A stretch of 64,000 nt of DNA from Alphaproteobacteria bacterium (GCA_964291265.2 OZ219747.1:608001-672000), one strand, 5' to 3'. Counted from the first letter of the stretch, positions 50,453-59,289 are shown. Program-made: numbers and translations. Notes: a model not told the origin generated them from the sequence alone.

Positions 50453-50588
50453 CCGAGAACGTTCTCCATGCCGTAGAGTCTTGCGGGGGGCTGTGATGGG
50501 CCACGAAGATGCCCCGATCGCTGGCCGGCCGGGGGCAAGACCGGCGCCAGCCAGGATTTCCGCGATGCCTGGTTCATCGAGTTCACCC
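50453..50588 (+). repeat. Chimeric junction: dapB 3' fragment fused to internal pbp fragment
   Basis: 50453-50526 matches 60904-61002 with small deletions; 50516-50588 matches 47094-47167; shared gatcgc(c)tggcc at the joint. Confidence 0.9.
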
Positions 50589-50910
50589 ATGGCTCTCCAT
50601 CCCGAACCCTGGATCCCACATCCTCGCCAACATGCGACGCCGACTGTCCGATGAGGGGACCAGACGCTACAACACCACCCCGGTCCTCATCGCAACCTGC
50701 GTCCAGACACCGCGCTACACAGGCGCCGTCTACAAGGCGTCGGGATGGATCCGTGTCGCAACCACCAAGGGACGCGGACGCTGCGATACGCACAACAAGC
50801 ACGGCAAACCGAAAAAGGACATCTGGCTCAGACCTCTGGGCAAGCATCCCTGGAAACGCATCCTCCAGCGGTGACAATCGCTTAGCAATCACCTCGTGAC
50901 CGAACGCCTG
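50588..50910 (+). pseudogene. DUF4338 C-terminal fragment ending in degenerate IS66-type terminus
   Basis: PWLSIPNPGSHILA..RYNTTPVLI.T.V.TPRYTGAVYKASGWIRV.TTKGRGR..KDIWLRPL; cacctcgtgaccgaacgcctgc. Confidence 0.78.
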
Positions 50911-50999
50911 CCTTCGACCCAGGAGCGACGCTTGCGACGCGGACGGTGTAAACCCCGGCGTTCCTCATGATCGTGCCAGAGCCTCCGGAATTGAGCGTG

Positions 51000-51156
51000 G
51001 CCAAGCGCGTTGCGCCACTCCTCGCGCTCGCACAGTCCCCGCGCCAGGGACGAGCGTGTGCTGCTCTCGCCAACCGCCGCCGCCTTCAGCCAGTCAACCG
51101 TCGTCGCAGACAGATGTCGAAAGCCGATCCTCATGGACCACTATGTAAGGCCTCAT
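51000..51156 (-). mobile_element. Left-end remnant of an IS4-like element with N-terminal gene fragment
   Basis: MRIGFRHLSATTVDWL..TRSSLARGLCEREEWRNALG preceded by tgaggccttacatag; assignment by resemblance only. Confidence 0.5.
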
Positions 51157-51989: not shown

Positions 51990-52226
51990 GCGGCTCTATC
52001 CGCACGCTCACCATCGACGCCAAGGTCCGGGGCATTCCGCGTCCTTGTCGGCAACGCCCACATCGGTGAAGCCTGGGATGCCCGGGCAAATGACGACAAC
52101 CCGAAATACTATCACCGCGTCCGTCTCGACGACCCAAGCCTTTCCAAGCCCTTCACCGCCGCCCTATTCCCCTCCGAGGAAGGGGATCGGGCGCAGCTCT
52201 TCTGGAACAGGCGACGGGAGGGATGA
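51990..52226 (+). pseudogene. DUF736 family fragment
   Basis: GSIRTLTIDAKVR then other frame FRVLVGNAHIGEAW..VRLDDPS..PFTAALF..QLFWNR. Confidence 0.75.
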
Positions 52227-52257
52227 GCCGTTCTGATTTGCTCTATTCCGAAATCGT

Positions 52258-52292
52258 TCGCAAAAGACTTCAAAATATGATAGGTTTTGCGA
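52258..52292. promoter_or_regulatory. Inverted repeat upstream of abiEi (probable autoregulatory operator)
   Basis: tcgcaaaa-N19-ttttgcga enclosing a TATGAT -10-like hexamer. Confidence 0.6.
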
Positions 52293-52309
52293 TCAATTTC
52301 GGGGGCGCC

Positions 52310-53095
52310 ATGTCGGACGCTAGGAGCTACATTGACGGACTTGCCGAGCGCGGCCGGTATCATTTCACGCCGGGGGAAGCGCAGGAAGCGCTCGGCGGCA
52401 CCAAGAACGCCGTCATGCTCGCGCTGCACCGGCTTGCCCGGCAGGGGCTGGTGGCGCATCCGGCGCATGGGTTCTACGTCATTATCCCGCCCGAGTACAG
52501 GCGGCTCGGATGCCTGCCAGCCGATCAGTTCATCCCGGCGCTGATGGAACAGCTTGGCCTCGGCTACTATGTCGGGTTGCTTTCCGCCGCCCAATATCAC
52601 GGCTCCGCTCATCACCGGCCGCAGGAATTTCAGGTTGTGACGGGGAAGAAGCGATGCGGAATCGCCCGCGGTGCGATCAGGGTCGTCTTTGTCGTCCGCA
52701 AGCGCCTCGCCGATGTACCGACACAGCCCTTCAACACGCCCCGCGGCACAATCCGGGTCTCGACCGTCGAGGCCACGACGGTCGATCTCATCGGCTATCC
52801 GCATCATGTGGGCGGGCTCGAACATGCAGCGACGGTCATCGCCGAACTGGCCGAACGGATTGATCCCGAGCGACTGGTCGCGGCGGCCCGAACGGCACCC
52901 ATGCCGTGGGCACAACGGCTGGGCTATCTGCTGGACGTGGCGGGGGAGGCGGACAAGGCCGAACTCCTCAAGCGCCACGTTCAGGAGGAAGCGCGGGACA
53001 TCGCGCCGCTCATCCCTACCATGTCACGCGAGGGTGCGACGCGTGACGCCGGCTGGAAACTGGACGTCAATGCGGATGTGGAGATCGAGGTATGA
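52310..53095 (+). CDS. Type IV TA antitoxin, AbiEi family
   Basis: GRYHFT, GFYVIIPPEYR, YYVGLLSAAQYHGSAHHRPQEFQV, STVEATTVDL, QRLGYLL. Confidence 0.9.
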   Translation: MSDARSYIDGLAERGRYHFTPGEAQEALGGTKNAVMLALHRLARQGLVAHPAHGFYVIIPPEYRRLGCLPADQFIPALMEQLGLGYYVGLLSAAQYHGSAHHRPQEFQVVTGKKRCGIARGAIRVVFVVRKRLADVPTQPFNTPRGTIRVSTVEATTVDLIGYPHHVGGLEHAATVIAELAERIDPERLVAAARTAPMPWAQRLGYLLDVAGEADKAELLKRHVQEEARDIAPLIPTMSREGATRDAGWKLDVNADVEIEV

Positions 53096-53904
53096 TCCCG
53101 CGCGACTACATCACGGAGTGGCGCGCGCGGGCGCCCTGGGTCGAGGATTCCCAGGTCGAGCAGGATCTAGTCATCAGTCGCGCACTAGTGGAGATATTCT
53201 CCCATCTGTATTTGCGCGAGAGCCTTGCCTTCCGTGGCGGCACCGCCCTCTACAAGCTGCATGTCGATCCGCCGGCCCGCTATTCGGAGGACATCGATCT
53301 GGTGCAAATCCGTACCGAGCCGATCGGCCCGACACTCGATGCCTTGCGCACCGTTCTCGATTCCTGGCTCGGCAGGCCGCAATGGAAGCAGAACGCGGGG
53401 CGGGTCACGCTGAGCTACCGCTTCGAGTCCGAGGACGTTCCGCCCCAACGGCTGCGGTTGAAGATCGAGATCAACTCAAGGGAACACTTCACCCTGTTCG
53501 GGCTCAAGGAGAAGCCGTTCGTGATCTCGTCGCGCTGGTTCGGCGGCAAGGCAAAAATCACCACCTATGCCTTCGACGAATTGATCGGCACCAAGCTGCG
53601 CGCACTCTATCAGCGGCGCAAAGGCCGAGATCTCTTCGATCTGGCCGTGGCGTTGAAGCAGCCTGCCTTTGACCCTGACCGCGTCGTCGAGGCGTTCCTC
53701 CACTACATGGCGCAGGAAGCAGGCAATATCACCCGCGCGCTGTTCGAGCGCAGTCTCGCGGCAAAACTCAAGATGCCGCTGTTCGCGGCTGATATCGGCC
53801 CGCTGCTTGCGATCGGGTATCGCTGGGACATTCACGTTGCGGCCGAGGACGTCTCCTCGCAACTGATCGAGCGTCTGCCCGGCGAACCGTGGAAGGGTGA
53901 ATAG
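53092..53904 (+). CDS. Type IV TA nucleotidyltransferase toxin, AbiEii family
   Basis: QVEQDL, FRGGTAL, RYSEDIDL, KLRALYQRRKGRDLFDL; ATGA overlap. Confidence 0.93.
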   Translation: MIPRDYITEWRARAPWVEDSQVEQDLVISRALVEIFSHLYLRESLAFRGGTALYKLHVDPPARYSEDIDLVQIRTEPIGPTLDALRTVLDSWLGRPQWKQNAGRVTLSYRFESEDVPPQRLRLKIEINSREHFTLFGLKEKPFVISSRWFGGKAKITTYAFDELIGTKLRALYQRRKGRDLFDLAVALKQPAFDPDRVVEAFLHYMAQEAGNITRALFERSLAAKLKMPLFAADIGPLLAIGYRWDIHVAAEDVSSQLIERLPGEPWKGE

Positions 53905-56226: not shown

Positions 56227-56694
56227 TCATTGGGGCTCAGGGAGCTCATCTTCGAGAGTGCTGTCGCGCTCGAACAGCACTCGGTATGTGTTGTCCGCAC
56301 ACACCCGGGTCTGCACCCAGTCATGAAAAGGAACATGGTTGGCCTCGGAAGCCGCAACCTCGATGATGCGGTCGGCGATCTCGTCATCGGACAATGACGG
56401 ATCAAGACGCCAGCCATTCGCCGCCAGGGTAGTGACGAGGGCGCCGTAGCCGGCGCGTTTGTTGCCGTCCACCCAAGGATGGTTCTTGACGATCGTCCAG
56501 CAGAGCATGACGGCGGCCCCGACGAGATCGAGGCCGACATAGTCCACGGCCCGTTCCACTCTCCCGACCTCGGACTCGAGCAGGCCACGGTCGCGGAGAT
56601 GAGGTGCGCCGCCGAAGCGGCGCAGCATCGCGTCATGCAGGTGGATGAGGTCCTCGGCGCTCGGCAGGATGATCGCCGGGCGCTCGCTGCTCAC
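56227..56694 (-). CDS. doc: Doc (Fic-family) toxin
   Basis: LRDRGLLES, HPWVDGNKRAG Doc-type motif; GTGA overlap with antitoxin. Confidence 0.9.
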   Translation of the reverse strand: MSSERPAIILPSAEDLIHLHDAMLRRFGGAPHLRDRGLLESEVGRVERAVDYVGLDLVGAAVMLCWTIVKNHPWVDGNKRAGYGALVTTLAANGWRLDPSLSDDEIADRIIEVAASEANHVPFHDWVQTRVCADNTYRVLFERDSTLEDELPEPQ

Positions 56695-56924
56695 TGCGCG
56701 AGACGCCGATAGACATCGCTGCGGGCGTCCATGTCGTCGAGCAGCGCCTGATACATGGCGCCACCGACGGTAGCCTTGGACTTGAGGATGACGCCGTCCT
56801 GGACGGGCAGGGCAACCACCTCTTCGCCGGGCGCGAGGTTGGCCTGGTTGAGGAGGTCACGGCCGAGGATGACGGCGTGAGAGCCGCCGACCTTGGTGAT
56901 CTTGAGCGTTGCGGCCTTCGGCAT
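56691..56924 (-). CDS. AbrB/MazE-type antitoxin
   Basis: LKITKVGGSHAVIL, C-terminal DVYRRLAQ; upstream of doc. Confidence 0.85.
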   Translation of the reverse strand: MPKAATLKITKVGGSHAVILGRDLLNQANLAPGEEVVALPVQDGVILKSKATVGGAMYQALLDDMDARSDVYRRLAQ

Positions 56925-56964: not shown

Positions 56965-57029
56965 ACTGGGCTGCGATGTCAGACAACAAGGCAGTGCGTG
57001 GCAGGACGCTCCCACGCTTCAATCCGCCT

Positions 57030-59122
57030 CAGGACCATTCTTTTGTCAGTCCTGTGGATTGTTGATGTGACAGAGACCTGGCATGGTTGAGGCGCCCGGG
57101 TTCACTGTGGGCTGGTTTCAGTGGGCACTGCTGGTGCATCAGGGCTCGCCAGGCACGTTTTTTCGAGTGTGCGAGCAGAACTGTCCTGTTGCGCCGTCAG
57201 GCGGCGCGTTCCCGGCTTGTGGCGCGGGGTCAGGAGCGAAGGTTCATGCGCCGGGCGGGATGAGGATAGCGTCGAGCGCGTCCTGGGCGCGGGCGGCGTC
57301 GTGCCGGTTGGCTTCGGGCATATAGTCGAATTGTCCGCCGCAGCGCACGATGGCGATGGCGGCGTTTGTCAGGCAAGAGAGATTGCGCGGCAGATGGCGC
57401 ACATGGACCCTGCAGCGGTCCTCGTCGTAGGTGAAGTCGCGTACGTAGTGGAGTCGATTTTCGATGACCCAGTGGTCGCGCACGAGGGCCAGAAGCATCT
57501 CGGGTCCGGCGCGTTCGGGACCGAGCGAGGTGAGGCACCAGGTGGTCTCGACACTGCGCTCTTGTGTCTTGCAGATCTCGCGTTCGCGCTCGATGCGGAT
57601 GGCTTGGTGGCGACCGTGGAGAGCGGCGTAGCCGTCCCACTTGGCGCCGGAGATGTCGACCACGGCACAGCGGCGGCGCTCGATGCGTCCGTGTCCCTTG
57701 TCGAGTGTCTCGAACGAAGCCGCACCCTTGAAGTCGATGGCCTTGAGGTCGTCGAGCATGGTCTCCTGGTTATCCTTGATCGCCGTGATGACATAGTCGG
57801 CGCGGCGCTCGAGAAGCCGTCGTGCGGTCTCGTGCTGAGTGTGCATCGCGTCCAGGGTGACGATGCGGCCTGTGACGTCGATGCTGCTGGCAAGGTCCCG
57901 CACGGCGGGGATCTCGTTGCTCTTCGCGTCGATCTCAACCTGGCCGAGGACCATGCCGGTTCCGTGCTCGACCGCTGCGACCATCATCCGCCGCCCGTTT
58001 TTGGTCTGCCTGGAGGCGCCGCGGATGTCCTTGCCGTCCATGGCGAGCGGCGTGTCTGCACCGGCCTGCTGGGCCGTCCACAGGCCGATGGCGTGGTCCA
58101 GGGTCTCGGGCGGCAGGTTGGCGAGAATGGTGTGGAAGGTTGTGGACGTGGGCGCCGTGTAGCGCTTCTTCGACGGGCTGTAGAACGCACCCACCGCCGC
58201 CAGCTGTTCCTGGGTGAGCAGGGCGGCGAACTGAGCGAATGCGCTCACGCCGCGGTAGCCGGCGAGCCGGGCTGCGACGGCGATCGCGAGAATGGTTCTC
58301 AGCGGATAGCGCTTGCCCCGGGGCTTGCGGCACTCGGGCACCTCGCCCAGGCAGGCGAACAAGCTGCGCAGCCCGGACGCGGCCATCGGTCCGGCTTGGT
58401 CGTGCTGCTCCGCGTTCCAGTTCTCCGGGATCGCGTCCCGGCTCAGCGCCTCGGCGGCACCGTCGGTCAGTTCGTACATGAAGATCTCCTTGGGCTGGCC
58501 GTGGTGACGGAAGCGTGCGGCGCCGCCGGGCTTGCGACCGAAGCCGCGCGTCAATCCCAGCGAGCGCCAGTTCGCCGCGCGATAGCAGGTTCCGGCGAAG
58601 CGCTTGATGTCGACGAACGTCTCCGCGAGGAACACTGGATATCCGTGCGCGGCCTCGATGTCGGCGGACAGCCGCCGAAGGCTCAGGCCGAGCACACGGG
58701 ACGCCAGGTTCGGCACCCCTCTCGGGCCAAGAATGACGAACCGGGAATTGTTCGCGATCAGATGCAGGCGCCGGAACTGCTGCTCCGCAGTCCAGCCGAT
58801 CCAGCGGTCGCGTGCAGCAAGCTTGAACGCGCCCGGCTGCCAGCCGACCAGCGCCACCCAGGTCTCGCCGTGCAGGGCGACATGGCGCAGGCCTTTGCCG
58901 ATGATGCCGTGAAACCGCAGGTAGTGATGCTCCTTGACCAGACGATCCCAGAGCCGGTGCTCACGTGCGCCACGGGTCGGGCGCACCGTCACCTCGCGAA
59001 GGTCGATAGGGGAATCCGGGGTCACAAGCGTCGTCATGCCGGCACAATGCCACGGCGAAAACGGGATGTCCACCCCAAAATCAGCCTGCGCCGAGCGCCG
59101 GGACGACAACAGAAAAGTCCTG
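57030..59122 (-). mobile_element. ISAs1-family element, complete
   Basis: IR caggaccattcttttgtc vs caggacttttctgttgtc (15/18); 10-bp target duplication caatccgcct (57020-57029, 59123-59132); 2093 bp. Confidence 0.95.
57244..59037 (-). CDS. DUF4338 domain fused to ISAs1-family DDE transposase
   Basis: N: EHHYL, RDRWIGW, IANNSRFVIL, NLASRVL, ETFVD..RFAGTCYRAANW..LG.TRG; C: MDGKDIRG, KSNEIPA, VTLDAMHTQ, HWVIENRLHYVRD.TYDED. Confidence 0.92.
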   Translation of the reverse strand: MTTLVTPDSPIDLREVTVRPTRGAREHRLWDRLVKEHHYLRFHGIIGKGLRHVALHGETWVALVGWQPGAFKLAARDRWIGWTAEQQFRRLHLIANNSRFVILGPRGVPNLASRVLGLSLRRLSADIEAAHGYPVFLAETFVDIKRFAGTCYRAANWRSLGLTRGFGRKPGGAARFRHHGQPKEIFMYELTDGAAEALSRDAIPENWNAEQHDQAGPMAASGLRSLFACLGEVPECRKPRGKRYPLRTILAIAVAARLAGYRGVSAFAQFAALLTQEQLAAVGAFYSPSKKRYTAPTSTTFHTILANLPPETLDHAIGLWTAQQAGADTPLAMDGKDIRGASRQTKNGRRMMVAAVEHGTGMVLGQVEIDAKSNEIPAVRDLASSIDVTGRIVTLDAMHTQHETARRLLERRADYVITAIKDNQETMLDDLKAIDFKGAASFETLDKGHGRIERRRCAVVDISGAKWDGYAALHGRHQAIRIEREREICKTQERSVETTWCLTSLGPERAGPEMLLALVRDHWVIENRLHYVRDFTYDEDRCRVHVRHLPRNLSCLTNAAIAIVRCGGQFDYMPEANRHDAARAQDALDAILIPPGA

Positions 59123-59289
59123 CAATCCGCCTGATTTCTCTTGACCTCGGGCATTCGTATGGTGCACGCGCGTACTCGGGAAGCTTCCGCTGGCCATCTG
59201 GACTCATTCACATGTGCCATGGAGTCCATCTCCACGAGGAGGGATTGGCAAGCGAACCTGACGCAGACAGACACACGGAGTAGCTCGCG

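Follow-up and report, generated by a model that had tools for sequence, protein, structure and literature searches.

An insertion sequence of the ISAs1 family carries, fused in frame to the N-terminus of its transposase, a domain that is Mom-like by its predicted fold and its residues and lies outside the Mom family in the strict sense. The domain is under purifying selection, stronger than that on the DDE core of the same protein. We tentatively read it as a transposase-tethered, tRNA-dependent adenine-modifying enzyme that would aid the horizontal spread of the element, a reading that is plausible and still short of probable. The element lies in an alphaproteobacterial stretch of 64,000 nucleotides, called the window below.

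The element and its copies

The element occupies positions 57030-59122 (2,093 bp) and is abutted at both ends by CAATCCGCCT; its features are listed in Table 1. Its termini are imperfect inverted repeats with CAGGAC first, in which 15 of the 18 outermost bases pair up, and its sole open reading frame runs through 597 codons without a frameshift. The original prediction of a complete ISAs1, with an intact 597-codon fusion inside inverted repeats and a perfect 10-bp duplication, is thus borne out by coordinates, reading frame, Pfam and NCBIfam.

That the fusion moves as a unit, also part of that prediction, can be seen from the other copies. Genome G000 (4.8 Mb in two contigs) holds five full-length copies at 97-100% identity, of which four have their own, distinct 10-bp duplication and three keep the 597-aa frame whole; the domain moves along with its element, and chance does not explain the fusion. 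Altogether, 13 domain-bearing loci of this lineage are found in G000. The length of about 2.09 kb and the 10-bp duplication recur at 12 related loci, whose duplications have no target consensus; these are 12 of 58 loci examined, and the end pattern used missed the right end in many of the others. An IS50-type element that also bears the domain is inserted within one copy of the present ISAs1 (G000:C2:3773124-3775553), which weakens the suggestion that the domain serves target immunity.

No consensus promoter turned up when the element was scanned. The lone match, a consensus-like promoter at 56982-56955, serves the adjoining 77-aa reading frame, and the element was inserted about 50 bp upstream of it. 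Folding of the leader, done without a shuffle control, gave no single structure common to seven sequences. In contigs of sequencing runs, the summed depth is far higher over the element than over its flanks, a figure that measures neither expression nor modification; in contigs of one RNA run, relatives cover the element patchily, which is likewise not a measure of expression.

The 77-aa frame has no Pfam match, looks AbrB-like by eye and precedes a Fic/Doc gene (window 56227-56924, minus strand). Also in the window are an AbiEi/AbiEii type IV toxin-antitoxin pair (52223-53904) and an intact-looking 582-aa DDE transposase (PF01609; 54352-56100, plus strand), which is putatively IS1634-like.

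Table 1. Features of the ISAs1 element and its insertion site, in window coordinates
Feature	Position	Strand	Basis
10-bp target-site duplication, left copy (CAATCCGCCT)	57020..57029	.	sequence
Terminal inverted repeat downstream of the transposase gene	57030..57052	+	same end in other copies
597-codon ORF, Mom-like GNAT domain and ISAs1 DDE transposase in frame	57244..59037	-	Pfam, NCBIfam
Mom-like GNAT domain (PF14236), residues ~12-200	58438..59004	-	Pfam, predicted model, alignments
Mom-equivalent residues of the GNAT domain: H38, Y39, R99, S113, D143, Y152, possibly R146			
Met218 codon, candidate internal start	58384..58386	-	ATG in 12/12 close lineages
DDE_Tnp_1-associated domain, residues 228-321 (putatively DNA-binding)	58075..58356	-	Pfam
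DDE catalytic domain, residues 329-544; likely triad D334, D396, E526	57406..58053	-	Pfam, conservation
Terminal inverted repeat upstream of the gene	59101..59122	-	end comparison
10-bp target-site duplication, right copy	59123..59132	.	sequence

The transposase part

Pfam assigns residues 24-168 of the 597-aa protein to DruA (PF14236; E 4e-21, 75.8 bits against a cut-off of 27) and the stretches given in Table 1 to DDE_Tnp_1_assoc and DDE_Tnp_1. With the NCBIfam ISAs1 model NF033564 it reaches 203 bits, well above the cut-off of 70. The likely DDE triad, assigned from conservation, is kept almost throughout the 53 full-length rows out of 70 aligned (D334 in 53, D396 in 52 and E526 in 51). ISAs1 elements have short terminal inverted repeats starting with CAGG and target duplications of 8-10 bp, and typically, though not by definition, are about 1.2-1.5 kb long with a transposase of 350-400 aa. 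Met218, which lies within a variable linker, is a possible internal start, judged from its conservation, for a domain-free 380-aa transposase; since it has no clear ribosome-binding site, it is treated only as a lead.

Resemblance of the domain to Mom

PMC13219725 describes Mom of phage Mu as moving glycine from Gly-tRNA to N6 of adenine in DNA. The Gly-tRNA-dependent product in double-stranded DNA is 6-NcmdA, the enzyme is a homodimer through W48, the residues named are H58, Y59, R111, S124, D149, R151 and Y159, and deleting a helix-turn-helix insertion abolishes activity. By its authors' own account there, the substrate cannot be predicted from the fold. DUF4338 (PF14236) is already called a GNAT in PMC10853773.

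The AlphaFold2 model of the domain has a pLDDT of 93. VIA-align places Mu Mom (8bv8) first of 48,161 chains (Z 15.4, rmsd 3.7, 168 residues aligned; next GNAT 12.6), and Foldseek, proposed as a check in the original prediction, also ranks it first, with a small margin over ordinary GNATs (3.7e-6 against 6.4e-6). For the IS66 version of the domain, Mom comes third by Foldseek and first by VIA. A BFVD search has a phage protein named Mom among its five best matches. The best ESM Atlas cluster, when PF14236 is excluded, is a Mom cluster (0.91; PF25680 on 11% of its members); Pfam Mom matches 21 of 101 relatives at E<=0.1 (best 2e-6); and the sole PHROG match is to the Mom-like phrog_1384 (weak, E 0.22). 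These last three hints, from Atlas, Pfam and PHROG, are weak singly and concordant. Pfam Mom (PF25680) has no match to the 597-aa protein and none in G000, and sequence searches of the PDB returned nothing meaningful, by single sequence or by profile. The profile-profile probability against Mom is only 14%, with at most 1.3% for 10 column-shuffled controls.

The active-site residues can be followed across the alignment. Mom H58, Y59, R111, S124, D149 and Y159 align to H38, Y39, R99, S113, D143 and Y152, respectively, equivalences that come from sequence alignment and not from superposed coordinates; among 101 rows, these are conserved in 99, 90, 99, 97, 94 and 98. The equivalents of R111 and S124 are present in all nine IS lineages examined in G000, and within the ISAs1 clade conservation of the domain is highest at the Mom active-site positions. 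In IS50-type lineages, the positions of Y59, D149 and Y159 are often substituted. The essential R151 is found in 121 of 121 Mom rows; its possible counterpart in the domain, R146, is one residue off and present in 72 of 100 rows. The helix-turn-helix insertion of Mom (about 175-209) is absent from the domain, in which the model and alignment place a short beta-hairpin (166-178) instead, and no Trp aligns with W48. The predicted fold and the kept residues together uphold the GNAT/Mom likeness proposed originally from two motifs, which are located at residues 37-40 (HHYL) and 139-161 (ETFVDIKRFAGTCYRAANWRSLG).

Relation to Druantia

In Pfam, PF14236 is labelled ‘Druantia protein DruA’, and G000 has 85 matches to it. 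Counting that label would overstate anti-phage defence, since each of the nine lineages examined proved to be an IS gene. In the present protein the match covers only positions 59-222 of the 297 in the model, PADLOC DruA matches residues 69-92 only (E 0.011), and a profile of the domain fails to retrieve a full-length DruA of 401 aa (L121) at E<=1e-4. L121 also has other residues at the positions of the Mom-type Arg, Ser and Asp, so that ‘DruA-related’, as the domain was called in the original prediction, is weakened to a Pfam label. The same prediction held that no other dru genes are nearby, and the flanking genes agree: they are the Fic/Doc gene, the 77-aa frame and an alpha/beta hydrolase gene, with no dru gene among them. 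On these grounds the idea of a part of Druantia was rejected. The three PF09369 matches in G000 are all more than 1 Mb from the element.

L121 itself (G319:C1:2600364-2604227) sits directly between tniQ and a 404-aa frame without a Pfam match, with no recognisable dru genes within the 3.9 kb seen. Two loci, L151 and L152 (G000:C2:1715853 and 2122749), have PF09369 (MZB) in reading frames some 645 aa long, with IS copies that bear the domain 2-5 kb away; this nearness is probably chance in an IS-rich genome.

The domain on other elements and in phages

The nine lineages examined in G000 comprise two ISAs1 fusions, one IS4 fusion, five IS50-type fusions and one IS66, in which the domain is a separate gene behind tnpC. 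A tblastn search of G000 yields 116 loci, 87 in these lineages and 29 diverged and left without a lineage; 52 of the 116 look whole, and one IS50-type lineage accounts for 11 domain-bearing loci. Elsewhere, a separate domain gene is found beside IS66 tnpC (five loci), UPF0236-type transposases (two) and a Tn5-type transposase (one). An extra helical module of about 80 aa precedes the domain in the IS66, IS4, IS50-type and three early-branching ISAs1 versions, and is absent from the present ISAs1 lineage; reading the IS66 module as a helix-turn-helix would follow from predicted secondary structure only. The ends of the different IS families have no evident shared motif.

A 51-row tree with Mom as its root places the 25 ISAs1 domains in a single group (93/85), to which five IS66 genes are the sister (97/91); the six IS50-type domains make up a second group (94/83). 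The ISAs1 domains may have one origin, with which the tree is compatible; its ISAs1 rows were chosen by likeness to the query, and the label of P0262 was taken as given.

Several further occurrences can be listed. On phage contigs, stand-alone relatives lie beside genes for dGTP diphosphohydrolase, nucleotide kinase and DNA methylase. Those on viral contigs L112-L118 are PF14236 genes of 250-310 aa in phage replication and nucleotide-modification regions and are candidate phage DNA-modifying enzymes; L112 has an additional DruA-type gene of 421 aa. L136, L137 and L138 (702-1,297 aa) have a long insertion that splits the PF14236 match and are possibly the DndF-type fusions described in PMC10853773. 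The second ISAs1 fusion lineage, L031 (G000:C2:3249771-3251876), has a tandem repeat in its DDE domain (units like GSGDAGKE) whose copy number varies between copies. The window itself contains two decayed remnants, one from the C-terminal part of a stand-alone gene (50509-50874, plus strand; PF14236, E 1.8e-6) and one resembling the N-terminus of an IS50-type fusion (50892-51134, minus strand).

The original prediction allowed that the fusion may already be in databases, and it is indeed common there. Domain relatives number 3,341 at 328-1,045 aa (6,306 at 50% clustering), and most of the best 120 of the 3,341 also carry DDE_Tnp_1_assoc or DDE_Tnp_1. The spread is patchy: with G000 included, the protein is matched in 16 of 201 genomes of the phylum and the Pfam family in 26 of 401. 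Elements whose transposases are 75-80% identical turn up under record titles that name Alphaproteobacteria, Gammaproteobacteria, Dehalococcoidia and Binatia, which points to horizontal spread. With tblastn, the domain has no match in 50,697 phage records and two in 72,556 plasmid records, both annotated as ISAs1 transposase.

Selection and retention

For selection, we used 12 lineages retrieved by the transposase part alone, which give 66 pairs that are not independent. The dN/dS is 0.20 for the domain, 0.63 for the linker, 0.35 for the associated domain and 0.24 for the DDE core. The dS is alike for domain and core (0.44 and 0.46), and the domain has the lower dN in 62 of the 66 pairs. Identity over 558 distant pairs is 52% for the domain and 36% for the core, a comparison that favours the domain because the set was chosen by domain similarity. 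Domain and core identities track each other (rho 0.91, 1,378 pairs).

The domain is also seldom missing. A search with the transposase part finds 66 loci, 54 of them with the domain upstream. Nine of the other 12 are distant or fragmentary (at most 45% identity; one has fewer than 100 bases upstream), and the remaining three are closer and do not include the start of the transposase itself. In G000, the domain is upstream of 12 of 12 ISAs1 transposase starts.

Natural deletion of the domain in IS66

Of the 27 IS66 loci in G000 that span the region from the tnpC end to the right end, 25 are deleted and two are whole (an example locus is L198, at G000:C2:2097900-2101000; there are 26 more). At least three different deletions have removed most or all of the GNAT core, and the helical module is always spared. 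Of the deleted copies, 22 were checked: 15 of them are flanked by 8-bp duplications, and seven are elements of 2,883 bp whose tnpC frame has 555 codons. Because deleted copies carry target duplications, the domain is dispensable in cis for IS66, and the case for a function that transposition as such depends on is weaker; possibly, the 52 apparently whole domain copies in G000 could act in trans for IS66. This dispensability is limited to IS66, since no ISAs1 copy of the present lineage was seen to have moved without the domain (66 loci; 12 starts in G000). Several IS66 copies hold an insertion that by its appearance resembles a group II intron fragment.

Proposed function and alternatives

DNA-adenine modification is the most likely chemistry of the domain, as judged from sequence and model. 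The Mom-like GNAT domain, likely an active enzyme, would move an amino acid from a charged tRNA to adenines in DNA. DNA binding would be provided by the transposase part, because this lineage lacks both the helix-turn-helix insertion and the module of about 80 aa; targeting by the transposase would make the marking local and low in dose. The modification would likely shield the DNA that carries the element from restriction on passage between hosts, and the benefit would then fall on between-host spread rather than on cut-and-paste inside one genome. More generally, it is conceivable, if somewhat doubtful, that at least five kinds of IS (ISAs1, IS4, IS50-type, IS66 and UPF0236-type) encode their own DNA-hypermodifying enzyme, here in a minimal form in which the transposase would aim a tRNA-derived adenine mark near the element. 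Many insertion sequences cross phyla without such a domain, which counts against the main reading. Some relatives have strain names that, we presume, are reminiscent of sponge symbionts. Restriction systems are enriched in sponge metagenomes, according to PMC5099237. Among the sequencing runs, those labelled ‘sponge metagenome’ had small shares.

The same enzyme might instead mark the ends or leader of its own element and so throttle transposition, in which case the catalytic evidence would be identical. Dam methylation throttles IS10 and IS50 in transposition. The multiplied IS66 copies are the domain-less ones (25 of 27), and for the two copies with a whole domain no left end lies within 6 kb, as expected after loss of a brake; fusion also holds the dose at 1:1, in cis. 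Such self-regulation is nevertheless rather unlikely, since domain-bearing elements are themselves multi-copy (the 13 ISAs1 loci and the 11 of one IS50-type lineage), the ends of the IS families lack an evident common motif, and a pure brake would be expected to be lost often, whereas the domain is retained across the ISAs1 clade.

The acyl acceptor might also be something other than DNA, namely tRNA, a host protein or the transposase, with the domain serving as a mild toxin, defence effector or regulator. Most GNATs do act on proteins or small molecules, ordinary GNATs score near Mom, the DNA-binding insertion of Mom is missing, and the RDxWIGW region is common to the domain and the defence protein DruA. 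PMC10853773 (2024) reads a DndF-fused DUF4338 GNAT as a protein-targeting co-effector. We consider this kind of acceptor unlikely: the equivalent of R111, an Arg that has been described as conserved in Mom homologs and not across GNATs, is kept in 99 of 101 rows, the element encodes no antitoxin-like partner, and the stand-alone relatives in phages adjoin nucleotide- and DNA-modification genes.

It is quite improbable that the domain is non-catalytic and aids nucleic-acid binding or transposase assembly. In its favour, several Mom residues are lost in IS50-type versions, the essential Mom insertion is missing, and the domain is retained in ISAs1; against it, the most conserved positions of the ISAs1 clade are those of the Mom active site, and IS66 and UPF0236-type elements encode the domain as a gene of its own, which thus needs no transposase partner on the same chain. 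A stray anti-phage piece of Druantia, or neutral cargo, is very improbable: the PF14236 score above cut-off favours the former, against the dru-free surroundings, the short PADLOC match and the failure to retrieve L121, and the latter was rejected as contradicted by purifying selection stronger than that on the DDE core.

Simple insertion sequences are generally regarded as encoding little more than what transposition requires. If adenine marking is indeed what the domain does, then several unrelated IS families have taken up a DNA-modifying enzyme, held under stronger selection than the DDE core, and IS biology would gain a chemical step, as an IS-encoded means of chemical anti-restriction or self-marking, and would offer a programmable enzyme for local DNA marking; G000, with its 52 apparently whole copies, would carry a modification layer written by insertion sequences. 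Iyer, Tahiliani, Rao and Aravind (2009, Cell Cycle 8:1698) reportedly linked Mom-like proteins to diverse bacterial transposase families and suggested DNA modification by transposable elements, as a computational prediction only; the idea is therefore probably in print, in outline, as a prediction, and the fusion is widespread in databases. Our literature search found no paper on the ISAs1-domain fusion or testing it, among sources of which part was accessible: PMC7824862, PMC4738411 and bioRxiv 861617 have no mention of the fusion in that part, bioRxiv 2025.09.15.676423 has no DruA or GNAT passage there, and transposase fusions may also appear in the supplements to PMC10853773 and to PMC13219725. 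Now that the chemistry of Mom, its donor and its key residues are known (PMC13219725), assays already at hand and two point mutants would allow a direct test of the question.

Comparison with known systems

Druantia DruA (PF14236/DUF4338) and the domain share a Pfam model, the N-terminal strands and the RD motif (RDxWIGW region); unlike DruA, the domain has no full-length match to a DruA of about 400 aa, and no druB-E operon surrounds the element. Phage Mu Mom (PDB 8BV8, PF25680) is the closest solved structure, with six active-site counterparts kept. It differs in sequence (16-19% identity), in its helix-turn-helix insertion, in W48 and in the place of R151, whereas the domain has an extra RDxWIGW helical hairpin and is fused to a transposase. 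Distant actinobacterial ISAs1 elements (36-41% identity) have no domain upstream, unlike the present lineage. With the ISAs1 family (NF033564; H-repeat type) as a whole, the element shares a single DDE transposase with DDE_Tnp_1_assoc and DDE_Tnp_1, inverted repeats starting with CAGG, and 10-bp duplications that follow no target consensus in 12 related insertions; it differs from that family in its length of 2,093 bp and its 597-aa protein, with about 220 extra N-terminal residues that form the GNAT domain.
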